Positions 36,464 through 53,789 are shown, counted from the first letter of the stretch. The stretch is DNA of 64,000 nt from Burkholderiales bacterium (GCA_035500055.1 DATJXO010000091.1:1197-65196); one strand, 5' to 3'. The notes: generated from the sequence alone by a model not told the origin. Made by a program: numbers and translations.

Positions 36464-38310
36464 ACCTGCTGTACGAGGAGGAGGGCGAGTTCAAGGTCGG
36501 GGCGGTGCTCGCCGAGAGCCCGGCCTCGTACCAGGTCGAGAGCCTGCGCGGCAGACGCTCCAAGGTGAAGGCCGCGAACGTGGTGCTCGCGTTCGAGCGC
36601 CCCTCGGGCGCCGAGCTGCTCCGCGAAGCCGAGCAGTTCGCCGCCGGCATCGATACGGAGTTCCTCTGGCAATGCAGCGGCCGCGGCGAGTTCGGCTTCC
36701 GCGAGCTGGCGCGCGAGTACGTGGGCCGCGAGCCGGCGCCGGGCGAGGCCGCGGGCGTGCTGTTCAAGCTGCACGCGGCGCCGATGTACTTTCACCGCCG
36801 CGGCCGCGGCCGCTACCAGGCGGCGCCGGCGGAGACGCTGAAGCTCGCGCTCGCGGCGATCGAGAAGAAACGGCAGCTGCAGGAGCGGATCGCGGGCTGG
36901 GCGGCGCGCCTGGAGCGCTTCGAGTGCCCGCCGGAGGTCGCGGCGCTGCGCGAGGAGCTGCTCTACGCGCCGGACCGGTCCAAGCCCGAGACCAAGGCCT
37001 TCGAGCAAGCCTGCGCCGCCGCCGGCCTCAGCGCGGCGCGGCTTCTCGAGCGCTGCGGCCTGCTCGGCGACAGCCACGCGTACCACCTCGGGCGCTTCCT
37101 GCACGAGTTCCCTGCGCACCGCGCCGGCTTCGCACCGCATCCGCCGCCGGCGCAGGCCACCGGCCTGCCGCTCGCGCCGGTCGCGGCGTTCAGCCTCGAC
37201 GACGCTGGCACGACCGAGATCGACGACGCCTTCTCGGTCGTGCGCGCCTCGCCTGAATCTCTGCGCGTCGGCATCCACATCGCCGCGCCCGCGCTCGCGT
37301 TCGCGCCTGGATCGCCGCTCGACGCGATCGCCCGCGAGCGGCTCTCGACGGTCTATTTGCCGGGTGCGAAGTACACCATGCTGCCGGAGGACGCGGTGGC
37401 GCGCCTGTCGCTCGACGAGTCGAGCGAGCGCGCCGTGGTGTCCCTGTATTTCGACGTCGGCGGCGACGGTGAGCCGCGCGGCCGCAGCACGCGGCTGGAG
37501 CGCGTGCGCATCGCGGCCAACCTGCGCCATGGCACGCACGAGGCGCTGAACGAGGCGTTCGAGCGGGGAGAGGAGGGCGGCGGGCTCGCCTTCGAGGAGG
37601 AGCTGCGCGCGCTATGGCGCCTCGCGTGCGCGCTGGAGCGGCGCCGCGGGCGGCCGAGCACCGGCGCGGCGCAGCCCGAGTACGTATTCAGGGTCGAGGA
37701 AGGGCGCGTCGCGATCGAGCAGCGTCGGCGCGGCGCGCCGCTCGACAAGACCGTGGCCGAGCTGATGATCCTCGCCAACGCGACCTGGGGCGAACTGCTC
37801 GCCGAGCGCGACGTCGCCGCGATCTACCGCGTGCAGGCCGCCGGCAAGGTGCGCATGAGCGTGCATCCGGAACTGCACGACTCGCTCGGGGTCTCAAGCT
37901 ACGCCTGGTTCACCTCGCCGCTGCGCCGCTACGTCGACCTCGTCAACCAGTGGCAGCTCGCCGCGGCGCTGCGCGGCGAGCGCGCGCCGTTCGGCCGCAA
38001 CGCCGAGGGCCTCCTCGCCGCACTGCGTGCCTACGAGGTCGCCGCGGCGCGCTACGACGAGCACCAGCGCGCGCTCGAGACCTACTGGTGCCTGCGCTGG
38101 CTCGAGCAGGAGCGAGTCGCCGAAGCCGACGCGCTGGTGCTGCGCGAGAACCTGGTGCGCTTCGAACAGCTGCCGCTCGCGTTGCGCGTACCCTCGCTGC
38201 CCGAGCTCGCGCCCGGCAGCCGAGTGCGGCTGGCAATCGGCGCGATCGACCTGCTCGGGCGTACGATGAGCTGCACCTGGCGTGCCACGCTCGGGCAGGC
38301 GCAGCCCTAA
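36460..38310 (+). CDS. RNB-domain exoribonuclease (RNase II family)
   Basis: GTG start (GTGA overlap) giving VNLLYEEEGEFKVGAVL. RNB motifs TTEIDDAFS and YAWFTSPLRRYVDLVNQ. Confidence 0.88.
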   Translation: MNLLYEEEGEFKVGAVLAESPASYQVESLRGRRSKVKAANVVLAFERPSGAELLREAEQFAAGIDTEFLWQCSGRGEFGFRELAREYVGREPAPGEAAGVLFKLHAAPMYFHRRGRGRYQAAPAETLKLALAAIEKKRQLQERIAGWAARLERFECPPEVAALREELLYAPDRSKPETKAFEQACAAAGLSAARLLERCGLLGDSHAYHLGRFLHEFPAHRAGFAPHPPPAQATGLPLAPVAAFSLDDAGTTEIDDAFSVVRASPESLRVGIHIAAPALAFAPGSPLDAIARERLSTVYLPGAKYTMLPEDAVARLSLDESSERAVVSLYFDVGGDGEPRGRSTRLERVRIAANLRHGTHEALNEAFERGEEGGGLAFEEELRALWRLACALERRRGRPSTGAAQPEYVFRVEEGRVAIEQRRRGAPLDKTVAELMILANATWGELLAERDVAAIYRVQAAGKVRMSVHPELHDSLGVSSYAWFTSPLRRYVDLVNQWQLAAALRGERAPFGRNAEGLLAALRAYEVAAARYDEHQRALETYWCLRWLEQERVAEADALVLRENLVRFEQLPLALRVPSLPELAPGSRVRLAIGAIDLLGRTMSCTWRATLGQAQP

Positions 38311-38345
38311 AGGCCTAGAATGGCGGCGTTTTTTCTGAGCACGGG

Positions 38346-39263
38346 GTGAATTTGCAGGGCAACGCCGCGAACTTGCTGCTCGACCCGCTCGAGTACTGGG
38401 GCGGGCTCGACCGCCAGTCGCGCCTGCTGGCGATCTCGGTCGGGGCGTCAGTCCTGTTCCACGGCGCGCTGCTCGCCTTCCATTTCCACTTTCCCGACAG
38501 CCTGCGCTGGAAGTCGCCCGACCAGCCGCTCGAAGTGGTGCTGGTCAACGCCAGGACGCAAGAGCGGCCGACGCGCGCCGACGCGCTGGCGCAGGCGAAC
38601 CTTGCCGGCGGCGGCAACACCGACGAGCACCGGCACGCCACCACCGCGCTGCCGGTGACGCATCCGCATGCGCCGGGGCGGGAGCTGGTCGAGATGAGGC
38701 GCCGCCAGCAGGCGCTGGAAGCGCAGCAGCGCAAGCTTCTGGCGCAGGCGCGCGAGACGCGCGCCGCGGTCGCCACGGAGTCCGAGCACCAGGCGTCCGC
38801 CGAGGAGCCGACGCCGCAGATCTCGGGGCGCGACGCGGCGGACCGCGCGCTCGCCATGATGCAGCTGCAGGCGCAGATCGACCGCGAGACGCGCGAGTAC
38901 CAGCAGCGGCCGAGGAAGCTGTTCATCGGCGCGCGCGCCACCGAGTACCGCTTCGCCCAGTACGAGGAAGACTGGCGCGCCAAGGTCGAGCGCGTCGGTA
39001 CCCTCAACTACCCGAGCGAGGCGCGCGGCAAGCTCTACGGCAATCTGCGCCTTACCGTGACGCTCGCGGCCGACGGCTCGGTGGTGCGCGTGGACCTGGA
39101 CCGCTCCTCCGGGCTGAAGGTGCTCGACCAGGCCGCCTTCCGCATCGTGCACATGGCCGCGCCGTACGCGGCGTTCCCGCCGTCGATTCGCAAGGACTAC
39201 GACCAGGTCGTGATCACGCGGACCTGGTTTTTCGGCCAAGGCGACAGGATCTGGACTCAATAG
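38346..39263 (+). CDS. TonB C-terminal-domain energy-transducer-like protein
   Basis: N-terminal TM (LLAISVGASVLFHGALLAF). C-terminal YPSEARGKLYGNLRLTVTLAADGSVVRVDLDRSSGLKVLDQAAFRIV. GTG start. Confidence 0.78.
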   Translation: MNLQGNAANLLLDPLEYWGGLDRQSRLLAISVGASVLFHGALLAFHFHFPDSLRWKSPDQPLEVVLVNARTQERPTRADALAQANLAGGGNTDEHRHATTALPVTHPHAPGRELVEMRRRQQALEAQQRKLLAQARETRAAVATESEHQASAEEPTPQISGRDAADRALAMMQLQAQIDRETREYQQRPRKLFIGARATEYRFAQYEEDWRAKVERVGTLNYPSEARGKLYGNLRLTVTLAADGSVVRVDLDRSSGLKVLDQAAFRIVHMAAPYAAFPPSIRKDYDQVVITRTWFFGQGDRIWTQ

Positions 39264-39264
39264 C

Positions 39265-40065
39265 GTGGCCGACCGCTACGCGGTGATCGGCAACCCCGTC
39301 GCGCACTCCAAGTCGCCCTGGATCCACGCCGAGTTCGCGCGCCAGACGGGCGATGCGGTCGAGTATGGCGCGATCGAGGCGCCGCTCGGCGGCTTCGCCG
39401 CGGCGGTCGGGGCGTTCCGCGCCGCCGGCGGGCGCGGGCTGAACGTCACGCTGCCGTTCAAGCAGGAGGCGTTCCGCTACTGCCGCGACGCGACCGCGCG
39501 GGCGCGCGCTGCGGCGGCCGTCAACACCCTCAGCTTCGCGGGCGAGGCGGTGAGCGGCGACAACACCGACGGCGCCGGGCTGGTGACCGACCTCGAGTCG
39601 AACCTCGGCTTCGCGATCGCGGGCCGCCGCGTGCTGCTGCTCGGCGCTGGCGGCGCCGCGCGCGGCGTCGTCGGGCCGCTGCTCGAGCGCGCGCCGGCGG
39701 CGCTGGCGATCGCGAACCGCACCGTCGCGCGCGGCGAGGCGCTGGCGGCGGCGTTCCGCGGCGTGCGCGCGACCGGCTTCGAAGGCCTCGCCGGGGAGTC
39801 GTTCGACCTGGTGGTGAACGCGACCTCGGCGGGCCTGGAGGACCGGGCGCCGCCGCTGCCGCCGGGGATCTTCGCCGCCGGCGCGCTCGCCTACGACATG
39901 GTCTACGGCCGCGAGACGCCGTTCCTGCGCCTGGCGCGCGCCGCCGGCGCCGCCGCGCGCGACGGGCTCGGCATGCTGGTCGAGCAGGCCGCCGAGTCGT
40001 TCCTGGTCTGGCGCGGCGTGCGGCCGCGGACCGCGCCGGTGCTCGAGGCGCTGCGCCGGGGCTAG
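39265..40065 (+). CDS. aroE: Shikimate dehydrogenase
   Basis: YAVIGNPVAHSKSPWIHAEF, NVTLPFKQEA, LLLGAGGAARG. GTG start. Confidence 0.92.
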   Translation: MADRYAVIGNPVAHSKSPWIHAEFARQTGDAVEYGAIEAPLGGFAAAVGAFRAAGGRGLNVTLPFKQEAFRYCRDATARARAAAAVNTLSFAGEAVSGDNTDGAGLVTDLESNLGFAIAGRRVLLLGAGGAARGVVGPLLERAPAALAIANRTVARGEALAAAFRGVRATGFEGLAGESFDLVVNATSAGLEDRAPPLPPGIFAAGALAYDMVYGRETPFLRLARAAGAAARDGLGMLVEQAAESFLVWRGVRPRTAPVLEALRRG

Positions 40066-40070
40066 CTGGC

Positions 40071-40781
40071 GTGGCGCGCGGCCGGCGGCGCGGCGTGTGG
40101 AGGATCGCGGGCCTCGCGCTCGCGCTGACGCTTGCGGGCGCGGCCGCGCTGCAGCTGTGGTTCTTCGCCCACGTGCTCTGGTGGCGCGACCACAATCCCG
40201 CGAGCAGCGCCTTCATGGCGCGGCGGCTCGAGCAGATGCGCGAGAAGAATCCGCGCGCCCGGCTCAGCCATCGCTGGGTGGACTACGGCCGCATCTCGGT
40301 GCACCTGAAGCGCGCGGTGGTCGCCTCCGAGGACGCCAAGTTCCTCGGCCACGAGGGCTTCGACTGGGAGGCGATCGAGAAGGCGATCGAGAAGAACGAG
40401 CGCAAGGGCAGGGTGGTCGCGGGCGCCTCCACCATCAGCCAGCAGCTGGCGAAGAACCTGTTCCTCTCCGGCGAGCGCTCCTGGATGCGCAAGGGCGAGG
40501 AGGCGGCGATCACGTGGATGCTGGAGAGCGTGATGTCCAAGCGCCGCATCCTCGAGCTCTACCTGAACTTCGCCGAATGGGGCGACGGCGTGTTCGGCGC
40601 GGAAGCCGCGGCGCGCTACCACTTCGGCGTCGGCGCCGCGGAACTCACCGCGTGGCAGGCGGCATGGCTGGCGGCGATCCTGCCGAGCCCGCGGCGCTAC
40701 GCGCACGGGCATACCACCCGCTACCTCGACGGCCGCGTAGAGACTATCCTCGGGCGCATGCCCGGCGCGCAGATTCCCTGA
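40071..40781 (+). CDS. mtgA: Monofunctional biosynthetic peptidoglycan transglycosylase
   Basis: VVASEDAKFLGHEGFDWEAI, GASTISQQLAKNLFL, ILELYLNFAEWG. Confidence 0.92.
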   Translation: MARGRRRGVWRIAGLALALTLAGAAALQLWFFAHVLWWRDHNPASSAFMARRLEQMREKNPRARLSHRWVDYGRISVHLKRAVVASEDAKFLGHEGFDWEAIEKAIEKNERKGRVVAGASTISQQLAKNLFLSGERSWMRKGEEAAITWMLESVMSKRRILELYLNFAEWGDGVFGAEAAARYHFGVGAAELTAWQAAWLAAILPSPRRYAHGHTTRYLDGRVETILGRMPGAQIP

Positions 40782-40823
40782 TGCCGTGAGCGGATTTCCG
40801 GCGCGCCTCGGCAGCGACCGGCG

Positions 40824-42116
40824 CTACGGCGCGCGGAACGCGTCGCGCGCCGCGGCGAGCGTGGCGTCGACCTCCGCCGCGCCGTGCGCCGCCGATACGA
40901 ACCCCGCCTCGTAGGCCGAGGGCGCGAGGTACACGCCGCGCGCGAGCATGGCATGGAAGAAGCGGTTGAAGCGCTCCTTGTCGCACTGCATGACCTCGGC
41001 GAACGACGTCGGGGGAGAAGCGCGGAAGTAGAGCCCGAACATGCTGCCGATCGATTGCGCCGAAAATTCGACTTTTGCCGCTTTTGCTTCTTTTTTCAGG
41101 CCCTCCACCAGGTTCTTCGCCGTCTCGGAAATCCGTTCGTCGAACCCCGGAACATCGACCAGCTTCAAGGTCGCGAGGCCGGCGGCAACGGCGACCGGGT
41201 TGCCGGAGAGCGTACCCGCCTGGTACACGGGGCCCAGGGGAGCGATCTCGTCCATGATCTCGCGCCGGCCGCCGACCGCGCCCACCGGCATGCCGCCGCC
41301 GATCACTTTGCCCAGCGTTGTCAGGTCGGGCCGGATGCCGTAGCGCGCCTGCGCGCCGCCGAGCGCGACGCGAAACCCGGTCATCACCTCGTCGAAAATC
41401 AGCGCGGCGCCGGCGCGCGTGCAGCATTCGCGCAGCGCCTCCAGGAAGCCGGGCTTCGGCAGCACGAGGTTCATGTTGCCCGCGACCGGCTCGACGATTG
41501 CGCCGGCGATTTGCGCGCCCTTGTCCTTGAATGCCTTTTCCAGTTGATCGATATCATTGAAGCCCAGGACCATCGTCTGCGCCGCGATCTCGGCGGGCAC
41601 GCCGGCGGAGGAGGGATTGACGAAAGTCAGCGCGCCCGAGCCCGCTTTCACCAGCAGGCTGTCGGCGTGGCCGTGGTAGCAGCCCTCGAACTTCACGATC
41701 AGGCTCCTGCCGCTGTGCCCGCGCGCTAGGCGGATGGCGGTCATCGTCGCCTCGGTGCCGGACGACACCAGGCGCACGCGCTCGATCGAGGGCACCAGCC
41801 GGCAGATCGCCTCGGCGAGCTCGACTTCCGCCTCGGTAGGGGCGCCGAACGAGAGCGCCTGCGCGGCGGCCGCCTGCACCGCCTCGACGACCGCGGGGTG
41901 CGTATGGCCGAGCACCATCGGCCCCCAGGAGCCGACGTAGTCTATGTAGCGGCGGCCGTCCGCGTCCCAGAGATGCGCGCCGGAGGCGCGTTCCAGGAAG
42001 GGCGGGGTGCCGCCGACCGCGCCGAAGGCGCGCACCGGCGAGTTCACGCCCGCCGGGATGCGCTCCCGCGCACGCGCGAAAAGCGCCTCATTCCTCGACG
42101 TCGTGCGTGCCTTCAT
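40824..42116 (-). CDS. hemL: Glutamate-1-semialdehyde 2,1-aminomutase
   Basis: [25 protein letters not shown]..., [13 protein letters not shown], ...[14 protein letters not shown]. Confidence 0.95.
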
Positions 42117-42723
42117 GCGCGAAGAGCTTACCGTAGTCGCGGGCGCGCGCCGCGACGTCGGGCGCCTCGAACAGGTCCGTGATCACCGCAAGCGCGTCGG
42201 CGCCGGCGGCGACGAGCCGCGGCGCGTTGGCCAGCGTGATGCCGCCGATCGCCACCAGCGGCACGCCGAGCGCGCGCGCGCTGGCGAACAGCGCCAGCGG
42301 CGCGCGCACCGCGCCCGGCTTGGTCGGCGAGGCGAACACGCTGCCGAAGGCGACGTAGTCCGCGCCCGCCGCCACGGCGGCGCGCGCGGCGTCGAGCGAG
42401 TTGTAGCAGGATACGCCGAGCAGCTTGCCGCGCAGTTGCGCGCGCGCCGCGCGCACGTCGCCGTCGTCGCGGCCGAGGTGGACGCCGTCGGCGCCGCACG
42501 CCAGCGCGACGCCGACGTCGTCGTTGACGATGAACGGGATGCCGCGGTCGCGGCACAGCGCCGCGTAGCCGTCGGCTTCCTCCAGCCTCTGCGAAGGCGG
42601 CAGCCGCTTGGCGCGGTACTGGAGCAGCGCGATGCCGCCGGCGATCGCCGCGCGCACTCGATCGCGCAGCTGCGCGCGGTCCGCGGCGTCGGGCGTGATC
42701 GCGTAGAGGCCGCGCAGCTTCAT
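42088..42723 (-). CDS. thiE: Thiamine-phosphate synthase
   Basis: Start re-set to [12 protein letters not shown] (ATGA overlap with the thiD stop). ...VHLGRDD..., AIGGITLAN. Confidence 0.9.
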
Positions 42724-43511
42724 CGCGGGGCGAACATCCGGTCCGGGACCTGCTGCCCGCCGCCCGGGCGGTAGCCGGCCTCCAGCGCGCGCCAGGTGTA
42801 GTCCTGCGCGCGCCGCGCCGCCTCGGGCGCCTCCAGCCCGCGCGCGAGGAACACGGCGAGCGCCGAGGCGAGCGTGCAGCCCGAGCCATGGAAGCTTCCC
42901 GCGAGGCGCCGCCAGCGGTCGGCGCGCACCACGCCGCCCGCGTCGAACAGCGTGTTCACGACCTCGGGGCCGGCGTCGTGCGTGCCCGTGACCAGCACGA
43001 AGCGGCAGCCCGAGGCGCAAAGCCGGCGCGCACAGTCCGCGAGGTCGGCGTCCGCGGCGGCGCCGGCGAGCCGGCGCGCTTCCAGGCTGTTGGGCGTGAG
43101 TACCGTCGCGTGCGGCAGCAGCCGCTCGCGCAGCGCCTCCAGCGTCGCCGCGTCGGCGAGCGCGTCGCCGCGGCCGGAGGCGAGCACCGGGTCGACGACC
43201 GCCGGAACGCGCGGATGCGAGGCGAGCACCGCGGCGACCGTGGTCGCGTTGGCGGCGGAGCCCAGCACGCCGAGCTTGAAGGCCGCGGCCGGCAAATCGG
43301 CGAGCAGTGCTTGCGCCTGGGCCGCGACGAGGTCGGCGTCCAGCGCGCGCACCGCCTGCACGCCGTGCGTGTCCTGCGCGGTAACCGCAGTGATCACCGA
43401 CGCCGGATGCGCGCCGAGGCTCGCGATGGTCAGCAGGTCCGCCTGCAGCCCGGCGCCAGACGTCGGATCGGAGGCGGCGAAGCTGAGGACGACCGGGCGC
43501 GGCAAAGACAT
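42720..43511 (-). CDS. thiD: Hydroxymethylpyrimidine/phosphomethylpyrimidine kinase
   Basis: Start re-set to [26 protein letters not shown]. ...LTPNSLEA..., [13 protein letters not shown]. Confidence 0.9.
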
Positions 43512-43549
43512 GCTGTTACACTCGCCCCGGATTCTACGTCTCACTCCCG

Positions 43550-43735
43550 ATGAGCGAACAACAAGTTCAATACAAGACTTGGATGTGCCTGATCTGCGGC
43601 TTCCTCTACGACGAGGCCGCGGGACTTCCCGACGAGGGCATCGCGCCCGGCACGCGCTGGGAAGACGTGCCGATGAACTGGACCTGCCCCGAGTGCGGCG
43701 CGCGCAAGGAAGATTTCGAGATGGTGGAGATCTAG
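43550..43735 (+). CDS. Rubredoxin
   Basis: [15 protein letters not shown]...[14 protein letters not shown] (two CxxCG knuckles), 61 aa. Confidence 0.95.
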
Positions 43736-43748
43736 CCGGCGCGGCGCA

Positions 43749-45617
43749 TCAGCGCCGCAGCGCGGCGGCGAAGCGCCCGCCGAGCGCTCTCAGCCGCTCG
43801 AGGATCGACTGCTCCGCGGCGTCCGGCGCGCGCGCCTTGGCCGATTCCGCGCGCGCCAGCGCGGGCGAGCGCGCCAGCCGCGCGTAGCGGCCGAGCGCCG
43901 CGGCCACCGCCGACTGCAGCAGCGAGTAGTTCACCGGCTTCTTCAGGAAGCGGTAGATGCGCGCCTCGTTGATCAGGCTGATGATCAGCTCGGAATCGCT
44001 GACGCCCGACGCCACCACCAGCTGCGTCTGCGGCGACTGCTTCTTCAGGATCCGGAGCAGCGCCGCCGGGTCGTCGGCGCGCAGGTCGAGGTCGCACAGC
44101 AGCGCCGCGATCTCCTCGGCCGCGAGCACGCCGAGCGCCGCGTCCACGCCGGTCGCCTCGAGCACCCTGTAGGCGCGCTTCGCCAGCTCGCGCGCCGCCC
44201 GCGCCAGCGCCGGGTCGCCCAGCACCAGCAGCGCCGCGCCCGGCGGCAGCGGCGGCGAGGGCGCCGCGGCGGCGGCCTCCAGCGCCAGCGCGACGTCGAA
44301 CGCTTCCGCGATCGTGGCGCGCAGGTCCTCTTCCTGCCACGGCTTCGAGACGAAGCGGAACACCTCGCCGTCGTTCACCGAGCCGACGATCGCGGCGAGG
44401 TCGGAGTAGCCGGTGAGCAGCAGGCGCACGGTGCCGGGCGAGATCGACTTGGCCTCGCGCAGCAGCTCGACTCCGGTCATGCCGGGCATGCGCTGGTCGC
44501 TCACCAGAACCTGGAAGCGGCGCGCCGCGAGGCGCTCGAGCGCGCCGGCGCCGCCGGAGGCGGTCTCGACGTCGTAGGAATCCCGGAACAGGAACTGCAG
44601 CGCATTGAGGATCCGCTCTTCGTCGTCGACGAAGAGCACTGCCGGCCGGCGCGCGCCGCCCGTGATGCGGACCGTCGGATCCGCCGGGCGCGGCGCGGCC
44701 GCGGGCGCCGCGGGCGCCGCCGAGGCACCGAGCGCGCGGCGCAGCGCGCCGACGTTGCCGGCGAGCATCGCCCGCGGCAGCGTCGCCGTCGCGCTCGGCT
44801 CCTCGGGGAAGGCGTTGCGCAGCGCTTCCAGGAAATCGCGCGCGCTGCGGTAGCGGCTGGCGGGCTTCTTCGCCAGCGCCTTGGCGAGCACGAGGTCGAT
44901 CGCCACCGGCAGCCGCGCCTCGTAGGACGAGGCGGGCGGAGGCGCGACCTCGAGCACCTGGCGCATCAGGTTCCCGCCCTGGCCGTCGAACGGGCGCCGG
45001 CCGCACAGCAGCTCGTACACCAGCACGCCCGCCGAGTAGATGTCGGTGCGCTCGTCGGCCGGATGGCCGTCGTACTGCTCGGGCGCCATGTAGTAGGGCG
45101 TGCCGAGCAGCTCGCCCGCCTGCGTCAGGTGCGAGCGCTCGATGCGCGCGATGCCGAAGTCGCTGATTTTCGCCACGCCCATGTCGCTCACCAGGACGTT
45201 CCCGGGCTTGATGTCGCGGTGGATCACGCCGCGGCCGTGGGAGTAGTCGAGCGCCTCGAGCAGCTGCTCCAGCACCGATGGCAGGCGCCGGATCTCGGGC
45301 CGCCATCCGGCGAGCATGTGGTCGCGCAGCGAGCGGCCCTCGACCAGCTCCATCGCGATCCAGGCCTTCTCCTCGTCGTCGCCGTACTCGTAGATCGCGA
45401 CGATGTTGGGGTGGTGCAGGCTCCCCGCCGCCTGCGCCTCCTGCTTGAAGCGATCGAGCGTCGCCTGCGCCTCGCCCGGATCGAGGTCGGCGCGCCGGAT
45501 CACCTTCAGCGCCGCGGCGCGCCGGATGCCCGGGTCGAAGCCGCGGTAGACGACCGCCACGCCGCCGCGGCCCAGTTCGCCCTGGATCTCGTACCGGCCG
45601 ACGCGCTCGTGAGCCAC
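43749..45617 (-). CDS. Hanks-type Ser/Thr protein kinase fused to two C-terminal receiver (REC) domains
   Basis: Kinase: [43 protein letters not shown]1: [32 protein letters not shown]2 (degenerate): LVLGDP, LLCDLDL, VVASG, LKKPV. Confidence 0.85.
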
Positions 45618-45622
45618 GGCGC

Positions 45623-47110
45623 TCAGGCGGCCTGCGCCGCCGGCGGGCGCACCGGCAGCACGAGCGTGAAGCGCGTGCCGACCCCAGGCCTGGACTGGAC
45701 CTCGAGCTTGCCGCCGTGGTTCTCGACGATCTTGTAGCAGATCGAGAGGCCGAGGCCGGTTCCCTTGCCCACCTCCTTGGTGGTGAAGAACGGGTCGAAG
45801 ACCTTGGGCAGCACCTCGGCGGGGATGCCGTGGCCGTTGTCGACCACCTCGACCGCGACGTGCGCGTCGCCGCGCGGCGCGGTGCGCAGCGTGATCACGC
45901 CCTCGCCGTCGCGCGTCGCCTGCGCGGCGTTCGAGATCAGGTTGAGCAGCACCTGGTTGATCTGCGAGGGCGAGCAGGCGACGCGCGGCACGGCGCCGAA
46001 GTCCTTGCGCACGGTGCGGTCCTTGAGCTGGTGCTGCGCGATGCGCAGCGCGCTCTCCAGCCCTTCGCGCAGGTCGTAGTCGGCGACCTTGCTGCGGTCG
46101 AGGCGGCTGAAGTTCTTCAGGTTGCCGATCACCTCCGAGATCTGGCCGATGCCGAAGACGCCGTCCTTCACCATGCGCCCGATCTCCTCCAGGGCGGCGC
46201 GCTCGCGCAGCGACTCCACCAGGCCGCGAACCTTGGCGAACTGCGCCGCGAGCGCCGCCTCGTCGGCGCCCTCGCCCGAGAGCGCGGCGAGCAGCCGGTC
46301 GGTCTCGGCGGCGAGCGCCGCGACCTCGGGCACGCTCTTCGCCACCGACTCCAGGCTCGCCTTGACGTAGGCGAGCGGCGTGTTCACCTCGTGCGCGATG
46401 CCCGCCACCATCTGCCCCAGCGAGGACATCTTCTCGCTCTGGATCAGCATCGCCTCCGACTCCTTCAGCTTCTTCAGCGCGCCGGAGAGCTCCTGGGTGC
46501 GCTCGGCGACGCGCGCCTCGAGCGTCTCGTTGGCGCCGCGCAGCTGGCGGTTGAAGGCGTCGATGACGCGGCGGCGCTGCTCCAGGCTCCAGGCGAGGAA
46601 CGTCAGCACCGCCAGCAGGAACCCGGAGTAGAACAGCAGCGCCATGCGGTAGAGCTCGGCCTCGGTAAGCGCGTCGTCGAACGTCCGGTCGACGGCGCGC
46701 TCAAGCAGATCGAGGCGCGGGCCGGTCGAGGCGAGCCACGCCGCCTCGAAGTCGCCCTCGGCGCGCGAGCCGGCGTAGCGGGCGAGGCGCGCCGCCTTGT
46801 CCGCGAAGGCGCGCTTCAGCCCGGGCAGCAGCGATCCCACGCGCGCGTCGCCGAGCCGCAGCGCCCGCACCTCGAGCGCGGCGTAGGCGACGCCGTAGCG
46901 CGCCGCCGGCGGTGCGCCGGCGCCGAGGCGCGCGTCCACCAGCTGCCGGTTCCAGCCCGAGTCGACCCGCCGCAGGGCGCCGAGCGCGCCGCGCGCGGCC
47001 TCGACGGCGGCGAGGTCGACTGCGCTCGAGCGCCAGTAGAGGAAGGCCCAGCCGCCGGCGAGCGCAAGCGCCATCAACGCGTAGCCGGCGCCGCGAAGCA
47101 GGGCAGACAT
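45623..47110 (-). CDS. Membrane sensor histidine kinase (no receiver domain)
   Basis: Start re-set to [26 protein letters not shown] (TM1). TM2 is [20 protein letters not shown]-box [14 protein letters not shown] boxes [24 protein letters not shown]. Confidence 0.88.
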
Positions 47111-47131
47111 TCCGGTAAAATAGCCGCAAGC

Positions 47132-47692
47132 GTGTCTTCGATCAATTTGACGCATCACTTCCTGATCGCCATGCCCAACATGGCCGATCCGTACTTCGCG
47201 AAGACCCTGACCTACGTCTGCGAGCACAACGACAAGGGCGCGCTCGGCATCGTCGTCAACCGGCCGATCGACATGACCCTGCAGGCGCTGTTCGAGCGGC
47301 TCTCGCTCAGCCTCAAGGACCACGCCATGGCGGACGCGCCGATCTATTTCGGCGGCCCGGTGCAGACCGACCGCGGCTTCGTGCTGCACGAGCCGGCGGG
47401 AGAGTGGCAGTCGACCCTCAAGGTGGGCGACGCGATCGGGCTCACCACCTCGAAGGACATCCTCGAGGCCGTCGGCCGCGGCGAGGGGCCGGCGAAGCTG
47501 CTGGTGTCGCTGGGCTACGCCGGCTGGTCGGCCGGGCAACTGGAGCACGAGCTGACGCAGAACGCCTGGCTCACCGTGGAGGCGCGCGACGCGATCATCT
47601 TCGACCTGCCGTCCGAGGAGCGCCTGCCCGCCGCGATGGAGCTCCTCGGCCTGGACTACGCGCGCCTCGCCGACCAGGCGGGACATGCCTGA
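47132..47692 (+). CDS. yqgE: YqgE/AlgH-family protein
   Basis: GTG start giving [45 protein letters not shown]... ...[15 protein letters not shown]. Confidence 0.88.
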
Positions 47693-48137
47693 GGCGCGCC
47701 GCCCAACCCGCGGCACGGTACTCGCTTTCGATTTCGGCTTGCAGCGCATCGGCGTCGCGGTGGGCGAGGCCGAGGCCCGCAGCGCGCACCCGCTGCCCCG
47801 CGTCGTCGCGCAGAGCATGCCGGGACGCCTCACTGCGATTGAGCGCCTGGTGCAGGAATGGCGCCCGGCGCTGCTGGTGGTGGGCCGGCCGCTCGGCGAG
47901 GACGGCGAGCCGCACGAGATGACGCGCCGCGCCGAGCGCTTCGCGCGCCAGCTCGGCGCGCGCTTCCGTTTGCCGGTGGCGCTGGTTGACGAGCGCTACA
48001 GCTCGGCCGAGGTGGAGAGCCGGATGAGGACGGCCTACGGCCGCGGGCGCGCCGCCCGGCTTGCACGCGGCAAGATGCTCGACTCGCACGCGGCGCAGCT
48101 CCTGATCGAGCAGTATTTCGATGAACGCGCTGCCTGA
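47685..48137 (+). CDS. ruvX: Holliday-junction-resolvase-like nuclease RuvX (YqgF)
   Basis: [19 protein letters not shown]..., [22 protein letters not shown]. Confidence 0.9.
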
Positions 48138-48621
48138 CGCCGAGGCGCTGCTCGAGCGGCTCGCGGCGCAGATCCGGCCGCGGCTGGTCCCCGGGACGGC
48201 GATGATCGGCCTGTACACCGGGGGCGCCTGGGTCGCCGAGCGGCTGCACGCCGCGCTCGGCCTCGCCGAGCCGCTCGGCCTGATGGACGTCGCGTTCTAC
48301 CGCGACGACTACTCGCGCAAGGGGCTGAAGCAGGATCCCAAGCGCACGCGCATCCCGTTCGAGGTCGCGGGACGCGACCTGCTGCTGGTCGACGACGTGC
48401 TCTATACCGGCCGCACGGTGCGCGCGGCGCTGAACGAGCTGTTCGACTACGGCCGGCCGAAGAGCGTCGCGCTCGCGGTGCTCGCCGACCGCGGCGGGCG
48501 CCAGCTGCCGATCTGCGCGCAGCACTGCGGCGCCGAGATCTCGGTGCCCGAGGGCGCGCGGCTGCGCCTGAAGCGCGCCGCCGACGGCCGCCTGTCGCTG
48601 GAGGTCGAGCGTGGCGCGTAA
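48121..48621 (+). CDS. pyrR: Pyrimidine operon regulator / uracil phosphoribosyltransferase PyrR
   Basis: [15 protein letters not shown], PRTase motif [18 protein letters not shown]. Confidence 0.88.
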
Positions 48622-49561
48622 CCCGCAGCTGAACGACCACGGCGAGCTGCGGCACCTGCTGTCGATCGACGGCCTGCCGCGCGAGGTGCTGCTGCAGATC
48701 CTCGATACCGCGGAGCCGTTCGCCGGGGTCACCGAGCGCGAGGTGAAGAAGGTGCCGCTGCTGCGCGGCAAGAGCGTGTTCAACCTGTTCTTCGAGCCCT
48801 CGACCCGCACCCGCACCACCTTCGAGATCGCCGCCAAGCGCCTCTCGGCCGACGTCATCAACCTCAACATCGCGCTGAGCTCGCAGACCAAGGGCGAGTC
48901 GCTCACCGACACGGTCGCCAACCTCTCGGCGATGCAGGCCGACGTGTTCGTGGTGCGCCACGCCGCCTCGGGCGCGCCGTACCTGATCGCGCGCCACGTC
49001 AAGCCGCACGAGCACGTCATCAACGCCGGCGACGGCCGCCACGCCCATCCCACGCAGGGGCTGCTCGACCTCTACACCATCCGCCACTACAAGAAGGACT
49101 TCACGCGGCTCACGGTGGCGGTCGTCGGCGACCTGCTGCACTCCCGCGTGGCGAGGTCTCTCATCCACGGCCTCACCACGCTCGGCGTGCCGGAGGTGCG
49201 CGCGATCGGCCCGCAGACGCTGCTGCCGGCCGGGATCGAGGCGCTCGGCGTGCGCGTGTTCCACGACATGCGCGCTGGGCTCAAGGACTGCGACGTGGTG
49301 GTGATGCTGCGGCTGCAGCACGAGCGCATGAACGGCCCGCTGCTGCCCTCGGCGCAGGAGTTCTTCAAGAATTACGGCCTCACCGCCGAAAAGCTGGCGC
49401 TCGCCAGGCCCGACGCCATCGTGATGCATCCCGGGCCGATGAACCGGGGCGTCGAGATCGACTCGTCGGTGGCCGACGGCCCGCACTCGGTGATCCTGCC
49501 GCAGGTGACCTTCGGCATCGCGGTGCGCATGGCGGTGATGTCGATCGTGGCGGGCAACTGA
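48611..49561 (+). CDS. pyrB: Aspartate carbamoyltransferase catalytic subunit
   Basis: [21 protein letters not shown], ...[14 protein letters not shown] start. Confidence 0.94.
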
Positions 49562-50823
49562 TGAAGCTCCTGATCAAGGGCGGCAGGGTCGTCGACCCGG
49601 CGAGCGGGAGGGACGAGCTCGGGGATGTCTTCATTTCGGATGGAAGAATCTCCGAGAAGAGGGAAAAGGCCGAGAGAACCATCGACGCCAAGGGCCTGGT
49701 GGTCGCGCCGGGGCTGATCGACCTCGCGGCGCGGCTGCGCGAGCCGGGCTACGAGTACAAGGCGACCCTGGAATCGGAGATGGACGCCGCGGTCGCGGGC
49801 GGGGTGACGAGCCTCGCCTGCCCGCCCGACACCGACCCGCCGCTCGACGAGCCCGGCTTGGTCGACATGCTGCGCCGGCGCGCCAAGGCGCTCAGCCGCG
49901 CGCGCGTCTACCCGGTGGGCGCGCTGACCGTGAAGCTCGCAGGCGAGCGCCTCACCGAGATGGCCGAGCTGGCCGAGGCCGGCTGCGTCGCGTTCTCGCA
50001 GGCGAACGTGCCGCTCGCCGACACCCAGGTGCTGTGGCGCGCGCTGCAGTACGCCGCGACCTTCGGCTTCCCGGTTTGGCTGCGCGCCGAGGACCGCTGG
50101 CTCGCCGCGGGCGGCGTGGCGCACGACGGCGAGGTCGCGACGCGGCTCGGCCTGCCCGGGATCCCGGCATTCGCCGAGACCGTGGCGCTGGGCGCGCTGC
50201 TGGAGCTGGTGCGCGCGACCGGCACGCGGGTGCACGTCTGCCGCCTGTCCACCGCCGCCGGGGTCGCGCTGGTACGCGCGGCGAAGCGCGAAGGCCTGCC
50301 GGTGACCTGCGACGTCGGCATCCACCACGTGCACCTCTCGGAGAAGGACCTGGGCTATTTCGACGCCCATTACCGCCTCGAGCCGCCGCTGCGTTCGCTG
50401 CGCGACCGCGACGCGCTAGCCGCGGGCCTCGCCGACGGCACGATCGACTGCGCCGTGTCCGACCACACGCCGGTCGACGAGGACCGCAAGCAGCAGCCGT
50501 TCGCCGAGGCCGAGGCGGGCGCCACCGGCCTCGAGCTGCTGTTGCCGCTGACCCTGAAGTGGGGCGCCGCGCGCAAGCTCCCGCTCGCCACGGCGCTGGC
50601 GCGGGTCACGAGCGACGCCGCGCGCATCCTCGGCACGCAGTCCGGACGCATCGCGCCGGGCGCGCCGGCCGACCTCGTGCTGTTCGACCCGGAAGCGCCG
50701 TGGCGGATCACCCCCGAGTCGCTGAAGAGCCAGGGCAAGAACACGCCGTACCGCGGCTACGAGCTGTCCGGGCGCGTGCGCGCGACGCTGGTGGCCGGCA
50801 ACATCGTCTTCGAGCAGCCGTGA
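49561..50823 (+). CDS. Dihydroorotase-like protein (PyrC'-type, predicted non-catalytic)
   Basis: [16 protein letters not shown]... The canonical metal motif D-x-H-V-H-L-REPG reads DLAARLREPG. 420 aa, directly after pyrB. Confidence 0.85.
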   Translation: MKLLIKGGRVVDPASGRDELGDVFISDGRISEKREKAERTIDAKGLVVAPGLIDLAARLREPGYEYKATLESEMDAAVAGGVTSLACPPDTDPPLDEPGLVDMLRRRAKALSRARVYPVGALTVKLAGERLTEMAELAEAGCVAFSQANVPLADTQVLWRALQYAATFGFPVWLRAEDRWLAAGGVAHDGEVATRLGLPGIPAFAETVALGALLELVRATGTRVHVCRLSTAAGVALVRAAKREGLPVTCDVGIHHVHLSEKDLGYFDAHYRLEPPLRSLRDRDALAAGLADGTIDCAVSDHTPVDEDRKQQPFAEAEAGATGLELLLPLTLKWGAARKLPLATALARVTSDAARILGTQSGRIAPGAPADLVLFDPEAPWRITPESLKSQGKNTPYRGYELSGRVRATLVAGNIVFEQP

Positions 50824-51752
50824 AGGCGCTCGCCGCGCTCGGCCTCGTGCTGCTGCTCGCCGGCTGCGGCGCCCTGGCCCGGCGCGAGGAAGCCCCGGCG
50901 CCGGCGCCCTCGGCGCAGCCGCCGCCGCCGCCCGCGCAGCCCTCGGGCAAGGGCGGCTATTACAAGGACGACGGCCCGGGCGCCAACCCGCCGGCCGACC
51001 TCGCCGCGATTCCCGATGCGGTGCCGCGCGCCGAGGCGCTCAACCGCTACGCCAACCGCCCCTACGAGGTGTTCGGCAAGACCTACGCGCCCCTGACGCA
51101 GCTGCAGCCGTTCCGTGAAACCGGCGTGGGCAGCTGGTACGGACGGCGCTTCCAGGGCGGGCGCACTTCGAGCGGGGAGCCGTACGACATGTACGCCATG
51201 ACGGCGGCGCACCCGACCCTGCCGATCCCGAGCTACGCGCGCGTCACCAACCTCGCCAACGGCCGCAGCGTCGTCGTGCGCATCAACGACCGCGGCCCGT
51301 TCCTCTCCGACCGCATCATTGACCTGTCCTACGCGGCGGCCTGGAAGCTCGGCTACGTCGAGGCGGGCAGCGCGCGGCTGGAGGTGGACAGCATCCTCCC
51401 CGGCGGCACCCTCGTGGCTGCCGCCGAGGACAAGAAGCAGGAGCCGCCGAAGATCCAGGCGCCGCCGAAAACTCCGGAACCGAAAACGCAGGAGCCGCCG
51501 AAGGAGCAGGCCGCCGAGCCGCAGGGCGTCTACCTGCAGCTGGGCGCCTTCTCCGGCCGGGAGGCGGCGGAGAGCTTCCGCGCCCGCCTGTACCGCGAGC
51601 TCGGCTGGCTCTCGGACACGATCCACGTCGTCGCCGGGGGCGCGCTCTACCGGCTGCACCTCGGGCCGTACCCGTCGCAGGGCGAGGCGCGCTCGATTGC
51701 AGATCGAATCGCCGCGGAACTGAATCTGCGGCCGCTGGTCGTCGTCAAGTAG
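50820..51752 (+). CDS. rlpA: Septal-ring lytic transglycosylase RlpA (DPBB + SPOR domains), lipoprotein
   Basis: GTG start (GTGA overlap). Lipobox LLAGC. DPBB region GVGSWYGRRFQGGRTSSGEPYD...VVVRINDRGPF. C-terminal SPOR region GVYLQLGAFSGREAAE. Confidence 0.88.
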   Translation: MKALAALGLVLLLAGCGALARREEAPAPAPSAQPPPPPAQPSGKGGYYKDDGPGANPPADLAAIPDAVPRAEALNRYANRPYEVFGKTYAPLTQLQPFRETGVGSWYGRRFQGGRTSSGEPYDMYAMTAAHPTLPIPSYARVTNLANGRSVVVRINDRGPFLSDRIIDLSYAAAWKLGYVEAGSARLEVDSILPGGTLVAAAEDKKQEPPKIQAPPKTPEPKTQEPPKEQAAEPQGVYLQLGAFSGREAAESFRARLYRELGWLSDTIHVVAGGALYRLHLGPYPSQGEARSIADRIAAELNLRPLVVVK

Positions 51753-51756
51753 CCGC

Positions 51757-51762
51757 TATAAT
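51757..51762 (+). promoter_or_regulatory. Consensus -10 hexamer upstream of dacC
   Basis: Perfect TATAAT in the 38-bp rlpA-dacC gap, 29 nt before ATG 51791. No clear -35 element. Confidence 0.3.
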
Positions 51763-51790
51763 TCGCGCCCCTTTTCGCGGACCCCGGAAG

Positions 51791-52912
51791 ATGCGTCTCG
51801 CCCTCGCCGTGCTGCTGCTGGCTCCCGCCCTCTCGCTGGCGCAGGCGCCGCAGCCGCCGCAGTTGGTGGCGCGCGCCTGGGTCCTCGCCGACCTCTCCAG
51901 CCACCAGATCCTCGGCGCGGAGCGCCCCGACGAGCGCGCCGAGCCCGCGTCGCTGACGAAGCTGATGACCGCGTACGTCGTCTTCGCGGCGCTGCGCGAC
52001 AAGAAGATCTCGCTCGAGCAGCAGGTCCCGGTGTCGGAGCACGCCTGGCGCGCGCCGGGCTCGCGCATGTTCATCGAGCCGCGGCGGCCGGTGACGGTGG
52101 ACGAGCTGATCCAGGGCATGATCGTGCAGTCGGGCAACGACGCCTGCGTCGCGCTCGCGGAGCTGGTCGCCGGCAGCGAGGACGTCTTCGTCAAGCTGAT
52201 GAACGACGAGGCGGCGCGCCTCGGCATGCGCAATACGCACTTCATGAACGCGACCGGCCTTCCCGACCCGCAGCACTACTCGAGCGCGCGCGACATCGAG
52301 ACCCTGGCGGCGGCGCTGATCCGCGACTTCCCGAAGCAGTACGCGCGCTACTACTCGCAGCGCGAGTTCCGCTACAACGGCATCACGCAGCTGAACCGCA
52401 ACCGGCTGCTGTGGCTCGACCCGAGCGTCGACGGCGTCAAGACCGGCTTCACCGACGCCGCCGGCTATTGCCTGGTCGCCTCGTCCAAGCGCGGCCCGCG
52501 CCGGCTGCTTTCGGTGCTGCTGGGCTCGACCTCGGAGGCGAAGCGCGCCGAGGAGTCGCAGAAGCTGCTGAACTGGGGCTTCCAGCTGTTCGACGCGGTG
52601 CGCCTGTACGCCGCCGGCGCGCCGGTGAAGTCGGTCGAGGTGTGGAAGGGCGCGCGCAACGAGGTGAAGGCGGGCTTCCAGGACGGCCTGGTCGTCAGCG
52701 TGCCGCGGGGCGAGGGCGGCAAGCTGAAGGCCGAGCTGCTGTCGCAGTCGCCGCTCGTCGCGCCGGTGGCGGCCGGCGACCGCGTCGGCGTGCTGCGCGT
52801 CACGCTCGAGGGCAAGCCGCTCGGCGAGTATCCCGTCGTGGCGCTCGAGGCGGTGCCGCTCGCCGGCCTGCTCGGTCGCGCCTGGGATACACTGAAGCTC
52901 TGGACGAAGTAG
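51791..52912 (+). CDS. dacC: D-alanyl-D-alanine carboxypeptidase (PBP5/6 family)
   Basis: Signal peptide. SxxK (PASLTKLM), SxN (QSGND), KTG (VKTGFT). Confidence 0.92.
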   Translation: MRLALAVLLLAPALSLAQAPQPPQLVARAWVLADLSSHQILGAERPDERAEPASLTKLMTAYVVFAALRDKKISLEQQVPVSEHAWRAPGSRMFIEPRRPVTVDELIQGMIVQSGNDACVALAELVAGSEDVFVKLMNDEAARLGMRNTHFMNATGLPDPQHYSSARDIETLAAALIRDFPKQYARYYSQREFRYNGITQLNRNRLLWLDPSVDGVKTGFTDAAGYCLVASSKRGPRRLLSVLLGSTSEAKRAEESQKLLNWGFQLFDAVRLYAAGAPVKSVEVWKGARNEVKAGFQDGLVVSVPRGEGGKLKAELLSQSPLVAPVAAGDRVGVLRVTLEGKPLGEYPVVALEAVPLAGLLGRAWDTLKLWTK

Positions 52913-52922
52913 CGAGGCCCCG

Positions 52923-53789
52923 ATGGTCTTCCTGAACGGCAGCTTCCTGCCCCTCGACGAAGCGCGCGTGCCGGTGCTGGACCGCGGCTTCATTTTCGGC
53001 GACGGCGTCTACGAGCTGGTGCCGGTGTACTCGCGGGTGCCGTTCCGGCTGGACGAGCACCTGGAGCGGCTGGAGCGCAGCCTCGCCGCGGTGCGCATCC
53101 GCAATCCGCACAGCCGCGCCGAATGGCGCGACATCCTGCTGCAGCTGATCGCGAAGCAGCCGTTCGAGGACCAGGGCGTCTACCTGCAGGTCACGCGCGG
53201 CGTGGCGAAGCGCGATCACGCGTTTCCCGCCGCCGCCGTGCCGACCGTGTTCGTCATGGCCAACCCGCTGGTGACGCCGCCGCAGGCGCTGGTCGAGCGC
53301 GGCGCGACGGCGGTGAGCGCGGTCGACGACCGCTGGCTGCATTGCGACGTCAAGTCGATCTCGCTCATCGGCAACTGCCTGCTGCGCCAGGTCTCGGCCG
53401 ACGCCGGCGCCGCCGAGACGATCCTGTTCCGCGGCGGCAAGCTCACCGAGGCCTCGGCCTCCAACGTATTCGTCGTGCGCGCGGGCGCGATCGCGGCGCC
53501 GCCGAAGTCGAACCTGATCCTGCCCGGGATCACCTACGACGTGGTGCTGGAGCTGGCGCAGGCGGCGGGGTTCCGGCTCGAGCTGCGCGACGTGCCGGAA
53601 GCCGAGGTGCGCGGCGCAGACGAGATCTGGCTGACTTCGTCGTCCAAGGAAGTGCTCGCCGTGGTGACGCTCGACGGCAAGCCGGTCGGCGACGGCCGCC
53701 CGGGGCCGCTGTTCCGCAAGATGTACCGGCTGTACCAGGAGTTCAAGCAGAAGGTGATGCGTGCCGGGAAGCAGCGCGAAGCGGCCTGA
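52923..53789 (+). CDS. dat: D-amino-acid aminotransferase (fold-type IV PLP enzyme)
   Basis: VPVLDRGFIFGDGVYE..., ...HCDVKSISLIGN..., EASASNVFVV. Confidence 0.85.
   Translation: MVFLNGSFLPLDEARVPVLDRGFIFGDGVYELVPVYSRVPFRLDEHLERLERSLAAVRIRNPHSRAEWRDILLQLIAKQPFEDQGVYLQVTRGVAKRDHAFPAAAVPTVFVMANPLVTPPQALVERGATAVSAVDDRWLHCDVKSISLIGNCLLRQVSADAGAAETILFRGGKLTEASASNVFVVRAGAIAAPPKSNLILPGITYDVVLELAQAAGFRLELRDVPEAEVRGADEIWLTSSSKEVLAVVTLDGKPVGDGRPGPLFRKMYRLYQEFKQKVMRAGKQREAA

Follow-up and report, generated by a model that had tools for sequence, protein, structure and literature searches.

Can a histidine kinase (HK) and a Hanks-type Ser/Thr kinase act as successive steps of one bacterial signalling pathway? 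The question is raised by two adjacent genes in a 64,000-nucleotide stretch of DNA from a Burkholderiales bacterium (GCA_035500055.1 DATJXO010000091.1:1197-65196), referred to below as the window. One gene encodes a membrane sensor HK, and the other a fusion protein in which a Hanks kinase domain is followed by a linker, two receiver domains (REC1 and REC2) and a short tail. Phospho-signalling in bacteria relies mainly on two-component systems and on Hanks-type Ser/Thr kinases, and the known links between them are mostly cross-talk of separate proteins, for example kinases phosphorylating regulators. In the present pair the protein itself contains the link, which has been stable in evolution: a single operon encodes a single sensor and a single polypeptide with both receiver and Hanks kinase. 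The pair appears to be a two-component system with an enzymatic regulator, and an undocumented link of His-Asp and Ser/Thr signalling. An initial annotation of the locus had proposed that His-Asp phosphotransfer gates Ser/Thr phosphorylation. What it observed is confirmed by our analysis, and its interpretation is partly supported, as far as sequence analysis goes.

Linkage of the two genes

Both genes lie on the minus strand, exactly where the initial annotation had placed them, 5 bp apart. The HK gene (45623-47110) starts at ATG 47110, encodes 495 amino acids (aa) and ends with a TGA at 45623-45625. A spacer, GCGCC (45618-45622), separates it from the GTG start at 45617 of the fusion gene (43749-45617), which encodes 622 aa. 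A 736-aa open reading frame (ORF) for the HK, reaching 47833, was rejected as an over-extension typical of high-GC DNA. The HK of 495 aa is 100% identical to a public protein (P0271, annotated "MAG TPA: ATP-binding protein [Burkholderiales bacterium]"). The fusion is also 100% identical to a public protein, P0001.

The survey of orthologous loci that had been suggested with the initial annotation showed the two genes to be linked throughout. In a genome scan using one genome per species, an HK homologue was located immediately upstream of the fusion gene and on the same strand in all of the 62 loci for which 700 bp or more of upstream sequence was available, and the flanking genes differed between clades. 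The thiD/hemL/yqgE/pyr surroundings of the window are common to a handful of its closest relatives only. The HK was also found upstream in 40/41 kinase-bearing loci from metagenomes. The median distance between the genes was 9 bp (range -4 to about 40 bp, 47 loci with both genes called), and several pairs overlapped by 4 bp. Clustering of all ORFs from 78 loci revealed only these two genes as shared, with no third conserved gene encoding a phosphatase, an FHA protein or a substrate. The next commonest clusters, judged by eye, were amino-acid ABC transporter and purine-synthesis genes, which are restricted to one subclade.

Pairwise-identity matrices of HK core, HK sensor, kinase, REC1 and REC2 correlated with r 0.81-0.85 between HK and fusion domains, compared to 0.83-0.88 between domains within one protein, a correlation that is partly species phylogeny. 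Furthermore, phmmer searches of all stop-to-stop ORFs in the window, using REC1, REC2 and the CheY and PhoB receivers as queries, found no further receiver, in agreement with the statement of the initial annotation that no DNA-binding response regulator is nearby. When the HK core and the kinase domain were used as queries against all ORFs, neither a second HK nor a second Hanks kinase was detected in the window; the sensitivity of such single-sequence queries is limited. From this adjacency in 62/62 and 40/41 loci with differing flanks, the correlated matrices and the lack of another receiver in the 64 kb, we conclude that the two genes are inherited as a unit and that their products qualify, by the usual criteria, as cognate partners, with a predicted phosphotransfer from the HK to the fusion.

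In the metagenomic loci L100 and L120 the distance from the HK gene to the kinase fusion is about 340 bp, compared to the usual 0-40 bp, and L094 (L094:900-2693) is the single kinase-bearing locus without an HK gene upstream.

The fusion family is large, with more than 5000 database matches at E ≤ 1e-10, of which the best 120 were confirmed to be full-length. Public full-length homologues are 41-77% identical to the fusion. In the genome scan full-length homologues occurred only in metagenome-assembled genomes (MAGs), and all but two were labelled as uncultured Betaproteobacteria or Burkholderiales; among the other labels of full-length homologues are one Sideroxydans and a few others. The family is confined to uncultured lineages and is unstudied; the origin of its members from MAGs, nearly all of them of uncultured Betaproteobacteria/Burkholderiales, is the probable reason for its having been overlooked.

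Domain composition of the fusion and the histidine kinase

The profile searches suggested with the initial annotation support all the expected domains: in Pfam, both receivers, the Hanks kinase and the HK domains are matched. The Hanks-type Ser/Thr kinase domain of the fusion spans residues 9-255 (44853-45593; Pfam Pkinase PF00069, E 3.7e-48), and its motifs are intact as first described, with K38, E60, H133-R134-D135, N140, D153-F154-G155, T165, A178-P179-E180, D192 and R255 all present. Conservation was assessed in an alignment of the window protein with 58 orthologues from the genome loci, which are 41-75% identical to it. Across these 59 species the Gly-loop glycines, K38, E60, H133/R134/D135, K137, N140, D153/F154/G155, P179/E180, D192 and R255 are invariant or have one exception. 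The activation-loop T165 is kept in 58/59 and aligns with the first Thr of the TQT motif of PknA/PknB, which are also the nearest solved kinases (E ~5e-49). By its profile match and catalytic residues this is a Hanks-type kinase, and it is predicted to be competent for phosphotransfer. No transmembrane (TM) segment was predicted in the 622-aa fusion, and the protein failed the test for PASTA kinases (NF033483), scoring 279 bits against a cut-off of 450 and matching the kinase part only (positions 7-279 of 563).

The kinase domain is connected to the receivers by an Ala/Pro-rich linker (residues 271-324; 44646-44807), which was part of the initial description. It is poorly conserved and variable in length, with a mean column conservation of 0.33 compared to 0.68-0.74 for the flanking domains, and it gave no match in a Pfam scan. 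It is much longer in the sister family described below.

Pfam Response_reg matched the fusion at residues 327-436 and at a second stretch (E 1.5e-28). The first match, REC1 (44310-44639), covers profile positions 1-110 and is the canonical receiver that had been described, with D331, D332, the phospho-acceptor D374 (codon 44496-44498), T402 and K425 invariant in 59/59 species. Its nearest solved relatives are the receiver of HupR (E 6e-26; about half of the aligned residues are identical in the printed alignment), followed by those of an adenylate cyclase homologue and of HD-domain regulators.

REC2 (43893-44237) had been called degenerate. The residues are as described, with G467 replacing the first acidic residue next to D468 and S537 replacing Thr, so that the window protein lacks a complete catalytic quintet, and D509 (codon 44091-44093) and K560 are retained. 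The degeneration is only mild, however. Scanned alone, REC2 scored 37.1 bits against Response_reg (cut-off 30.2), and it aligns without gaps to REC1 (31% identity, E 2e-12), pairing D509 with D374, S537 with T402 and K560 with K425. Five strand-helix repeats are seen in the AlphaFold2 (AF2) model of the fusion, of which the secondary structure alone was used (18 close homologues; mean predicted local distance difference test score, pLDDT, 53; predicted TM-score, pTM, 0.37). In most relatives the residues are canonical: D467 is found in 40 of the 59 species, D468 in 35, D509 in 56, T537 in 48 and K560 in 55. By these comparisons REC2 is a recently and mildly eroded receiver that was ancestrally complete, and not an old pseudo-receiver.

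After REC2 the protein continues with a conserved P-x-L segment and ends in a cationic amphipathic helix (residues 599-622, predicted helical; 43752-43823), which across the family takes the forms ILxxIKSLRGRWFG, ILxxLKxLRGRWF or LGGRFAAA. Its hydrophobic, basic and aromatic pattern is kept throughout the fusion family, and also in proteins with the two receivers but no kinase. The median hydrophobic moment is 0.56, compared to 0.45 on the same scale for the membrane-targeting helix of E. coli MinD, and the median net charge is +3. In composition, too, the helix is similar to that of MinD, and it might hold the otherwise soluble fusion at the membrane or on the HK. S604 in the tail was considered as an autophosphorylation or pseudo-substrate site and rejected, being conserved only in the close clade (15/59).

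The HK carries, in accordance with the first description, an H-box and complete N and G boxes. HisKA (PF00512) is matched at residues 231-259 (30.5 bits, cut-off 26.9, E 3.8e-07) and HATPase_c (PF02518) at residues 381-488 (E 2e-30), and the N, G1, F and G2 boxes are readable in the catalytic domain (45647-45970). The dimerisation and histidine phosphotransfer (DHp) region occupies 46091-46447. In 53 species the phospho-acceptor H240 (codon 46391-46393), located in AHEVNTPL, is invariant, DHp helix 1 (M228-V256) is nearly so, and E241 and T244 are essentially invariant. The latter match HExxT, the phosphatase motif of HisKA kinases. The two DHp helices are separated by about 50 additional residues. 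The nearest solved sequence is ZraS (E 8e-30). Based on domains and boxes this is a class I (HisKA) sensor histidine kinase, with a predicted activity.

Two TM segments bracket a periplasmic region of about 126 residues, close to the roughly 130 first estimated. TM1 (residues ~6-26; 47033-47095) is a moderately hydrophobic helix, H2-29 in the AF2 model, and the equivalent segment is clearly hydrophobic in orthologues. TM2 (residues 153-176; 46583-46654) has Kyte-Doolittle 19-residue means above 1.6 in windows starting at residues 153-159 and lies in a continuous modelled helix, 130-219. The model has a mean pLDDT of 80 and about 90 across the N-terminal 200 residues; the periplasmic domain is all-helical in it (pLDDT ~90) and continues via TM2 into a long coiled coil and the DHp.

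The initial annotation had assigned the periplasmic region (residues 27-152; 46655-47032) to no recognised family, which does not seem to hold. A sequence search of the PDB with the HK gave no match in the sensor region, and a Foldseek search of the HK model against the PDB returned HK cores only (best HK853, ZraS, LvrB and CckA) and was uninformative on the sensor. The window HK itself matched the DAHL profile (PF19443) below threshold (16.7 bits, cut-off 38), at profile positions 5-86 alone. DAHL was matched in 24/34 close orthologues, a set chosen partly for recorded DAHL matches, and distant orthologues matched the full 221-position profile at 52-159 bits. The domain has about 125 residues in the window HK and about 225-260 in distant orthologues, and motifs at both of its ends are common to them. 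Because the distant orthologues match the full profile and both end motifs are kept, we assign the sensor, from this homology, as a probable DAHL domain with a shortened middle. Relative to these orthologues some 100 residues are missing between the two retained ends, and this central part seems to have been lost in the clade of the window.

The proposed signalling route and its alternatives

What, then, would the HK do to the fusion? We find it somewhat probable, from sequence and conservation, that the HK phosphorylates REC1 at D374 and thereby controls the PknB-like kinase within a dedicated two-component operon. The membrane HK would sense a periplasmic signal through the shortened DAHL domain, autophosphorylate at H240 and then phosphorylate D374 in REC1, and perhaps D509 in REC2 too. 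The HExxT motif suggests that it may remove the phosphoryl group as well. The phosphorylation state of the receiver pair would then control the N-terminal Ser/Thr kinase, converting a short-lived His-Asp signal into more stable Ser/Thr phosphorylation of further targets. The invariance of the catalytic residues of both kinase and REC1 in the 59 species argues that both chemistries are under selection. The phosphotransfer from HK to fusion, the receiver that is used, the sign of control and the substrates are all inferred.

Of the two receivers, REC1 is the likelier target of the HK. The α1 helix of a receiver is the usual contact of the DHp domain, and that of REC1 is conserved (mean entropy ~0.8 bits), as is the near-invariant DHp helix 1, whereas α1 of REC2 is variable (~1.7 bits). 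An analysis of co-variation between DHp helix 1 and the receiver α1 helices was not feasible, helix 1 being nearly invariant, and their relative conservation was compared instead.

Kinases of the PknB type become active when they dimerise and autophosphorylate in trans, and dimer formation is common among phosphorylated receivers. From these two properties, the likeliest route of control would be a receiver-driven dimerisation that lets the kinase domains meet and phosphorylate each other at T165, with this residue as the activating site; the kinase could alternatively be relieved from autoinhibition. A fuller version of the dimerisation route is tentative, and we would sooner expect some part of it to fail: phosphorylated REC1 would dimerise the REC-REC portion and force trans-autophosphorylation of T165, the tail would anchor the protein at the membrane beside the HK, and a single periplasmic cue would be recorded as lasting Ser/Thr phosphorylation of many targets. 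If true, a Hanks-kinase output would have been demonstrated for a bacterial response regulator for the first time, and this regulator would have arisen by attachment of a kinase to an older REC-REC-tail protein without an output.

Regulators made of REC-REC-tail without a kinase came to light in a scan of metagenomes for which a sister group of the kinase-REC-REC proteins served as the seed. One and the same HK family (45-71% core identity) was found directly upstream of three kinds of partner: fusions of the window type, fusions of the sister type, and proteins consisting of REC1, REC2 and the tail. The sister type has a longer linker, rich in Ala, Pro and Lys, and degenerate kinase motifs in some members. 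These members, among them P0175, P0209 and the protein of L094, have HGE or HGD in place of HRD, DLG in place of DFG and a short activation loop, and may be pseudokinases.

Partners of the third kind have a length of about 310 aa and consist of the two receivers and the amphipathic tail seen in the fusion; Response_reg is their sole Pfam match. An HK gene was upstream in 15/17 of these kinase-less loci. Compared to the window pair, the HK core is 45-54% identical and the REC1-REC2 portion 38-47%. DAHL was matched by the two HKs tested, at 122 and 159 bits, and CBS in one case. Examples of such loci are L119, L133 (L133:5974-6921), L138 (L138:5986-6927), L140, L142, L147, L153, L154 and L156, in each of which the REC-REC-tail gene directly follows a homologue of the window HK gene.

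Since the same HK family pairs with kinase-less REC-REC-tail proteins, the core module looks like an HK with a REC-REC-tail regulator, to which the Hanks kinase was later added at the N-terminus. Such an addition would explain why the receivers lie C-terminal to the enzyme. The order reversed from that of usual response regulators, to which the initial annotation had drawn attention, is present, but the receivers seem to be an older self-standing regulator and not a mere appendage of the kinase.

Several points weigh against control of the kinase by the HK as outlined above. The kinase-less pairs show that the receiver pair can signal without a kinase, which is then not necessarily the output, or the sole one. 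Some kinases of the sister family have degenerate catalytic motifs. HupR, the nearest solved relative of REC1, is active when unphosphorylated, and the sign of control could accordingly be either activation or inhibition. The AF2 model of the fusion is too poor, at its mean pLDDT of 53, to inform on domain packing. Among the clustered ORFs of the loci, no phosphatase, FHA protein or candidate substrate was linked to the pair.

The first of these points leads to an alternative in which the REC-REC-tail portion is the true regulator and output, for instance via the tail helix or protein contacts. The Hanks kinase would then be an accessory that provides input or feedback: by phosphorylating the regulator, the HK or a partner in cis it would add a second cue to the pathway instead of being switched by it. 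The ~310-aa proteins, which share the tail and are encoded directly downstream of this HK family in 15/17 loci, speak for it, as does the retention of the tail motif with or without a kinase. The phosphorylation of response regulators and HKs by Hanks kinases is also well documented, e.g. that of WalRK by PrkC (PMC4478028; reviewed in PMC12189002). The kinase has no sensor domain or TM segment of its own, however, and hence no evident independent input. Neither is any Ser/Thr of tail or linker conserved family-wide (S604 in 15/59), and receivers fused to enzymes normally regulate those enzymes. On balance we consider this alternative unlikely, as we do a second one that keeps the wiring and inverts its sign.

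According to the latter, the unphosphorylated fusion is the active kinase, which the HK turns off by phosphorylation, or the HK acts mainly to dephosphorylate it. Of solved receivers REC1 is most similar to that of HupR, which is active when unphosphorylated, and the invariant or nearly invariant E241/T244 of the HExxT motif equip the HK for phosphatase action. Receiver similarity does not predict the sign of control, though, and the sequence does not decide it; we think an inverted sign improbable.

It is very unlikely that the chief role of one or both receivers is to compete for phosphoryl groups or to act as a sink for them, thereby shaping how the HK signals to another, unlinked regulator, with the Hanks kinase acting independently. 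The tandem of two receivers without an Hpt domain, and the loss of one acidic residue and the Ser-for-Thr replacement in REC2 of the window clade, could be read in this manner. On the other hand, the two genes are strictly linked at translational-coupling distances in about 100 loci, there is no other receiver within 64 kb, REC1 is fully conserved, and a sink has no need for a covalently attached and fully conserved kinase. Finally, high-GC DNA does yield many spurious long ORFs in all frames here, but an accidental adjacency of non-partners or an ORF-calling artefact is effectively refuted by profile E-values down to 1e-48, by the identical public proteins, and by the adjacency in 62/62 and 40/41 loci of differing context.

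If the receivers do gate the kinase, as in the proposed route via D374, the locus would be a simple case of an Asp-phosphorylation switch controlling a eukaryote-like kinase. It would then provide a defined trigger for a bacterial Ser/Thr kinase, a class for which the activating conditions are usually obscure, and a small building block for synthetic signalling. With the kinase-less relatives there is also a natural before/after comparison for the addition of a new output to an existing regulator.

Related systems and genomic surroundings

Domain databases list combinations of kinase and receiver domains. A specific model for the fusion is lacking in NCBIfam, and public annotations read "protein kinase" alone. 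In support of the initial annotation, whose author knew of no characterised example of this exact pair, full-text literature searches found no characterised bacterial fusion of a Hanks kinase and a receiver, and the main review of bacterial Hanks kinases makes no mention of receivers, REC domains or fusions (PMC6213207). The parts are ordinary members of their families (a HisKA kinase, CheY-like receivers and a Hanks kinase), in a combination that was not found characterised in bacteria.

In function, the nearest precedents are receiver-fused enzymes. One of them, PA3346 of Pseudomonas aeruginosa, consists of a receiver and a PP2C Ser/Thr phosphatase, is stimulated by the HK PA2824 and acts on the linked PA3347 (PMC12189002). 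It shares with the window fusion the covalent joining of a receiver to a Ser/Thr phospho-signalling enzyme with input from an HK, which is predicted for our pair, and the enzyme in the window is a Hanks kinase, N-terminal to two receivers and a conserved tail. In domain order, the nearest precedent is the fungal protein Rim15, a Ser/Thr kinase with a C-terminal receiver. It is classed among the response regulators, and according to the same paper the function of this receiver has apparently not been studied (PMC8510515). It has the same order, with the protein kinase first and the receiver C-terminal, but it is eukaryotic, its single receiver often lacks the acceptor Asp in Ascomycota, and no HK gene is adjacent. 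The likeness is an analogy of architecture rather than a demonstrated homology of the fusion.

Among solved structures, the kinase domain is closest to mycobacterial PknA/PknB and pneumococcal StkP, with which the fusion shares an RD-type catalytic loop and an activation-loop Thr at the phospho-site of PknA/PknB. The fusion differs from them in having no TM, PASTA or other extracellular sensor segment, and its input would come from the receivers. HupR and the RpfG-type (HD-GYP/HD) regulators are of one receiver subfamily with REC1 and REC2 (motifs DQRMPGMTG ... TGY ... KPW), and the fusion is without the sigma-54 activator, DNA-binding or HD-GYP domains of these proteins. The best PDB matches are HupR, 3kcn, 3hv2 and 2rjn, and the best NCBIfam receiver model is that of a NosR-family cyclic di-GMP phosphodiesterase. 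The test for RpfG/NosR phosphodiesterases (NF053512) failed, with 195 bits against a cut-off of 400; REC1/REC2 matched its receiver part alone, and no HD domain was found in the Pfam scan of the fusion. The kinase-less pairs have a homologous HK and REC1-REC2, the same tail and gene order, and lack the N-terminal Hanks kinase and the linker.

The receiver-less proteins nearest to the kinase domain come from Massilia and Duganella (46-52% identity over residues 5-266). These kinases, of the type VI secretion system (T6SS) or PpkA-like type, differ from the fusion in having no receivers and in being encoded beside PP2C, TagF and TssM genes. PP2C, TagF, TssM and FHA genes were absent from the fusion-family loci when these were examined for a T6SS PpkA-type context, and no PP2C, TagF or TssM gene was found among the window ORFs examined at 38000-53000. 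The loci L064 (L064:7103-15490, Massilia sp.), L065, L066 and L068 contain such receiver-less relatives beside PP2C, TagF and TssM (IcmF), along with a Tll0287-like/HAMP protein; the kinases look like the threonine-phosphorylation kinases of T6SS. A different arrangement was observed in two Bryobacteraceae MAGs (L073:3039-8459 and L074:4419-9830), where an unrelated, TM-bearing Hanks kinase gene is divergent from an HK gene and from a gene whose product has receiver-like N- and C-terminal segments, recognised by eye only. These loci would represent an unfused juxtaposition of the two systems in Acidobacteria.

In the window the pair is surrounded by housekeeping-like genes, as judged by eye from ORF translations: thiD, thiE and hemL downstream, and yqgE/algH, ruvX, pyrR and pyrB upstream on the opposite strand. 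The GC content of the 64 kb is about 70%, and that of 43300-47400 is 72%. A scan of the latter region for promoters and terminators found nothing beyond the shuffled expectation and is uninformative at this GC content. The divergent yqgE/algH-like gene next to the HK gene (47110-47134) probably starts at GTG 47132, only 21 bp from the ATG at 47110, in which case the promoters of both genes would overlap neighbouring coding sequence.

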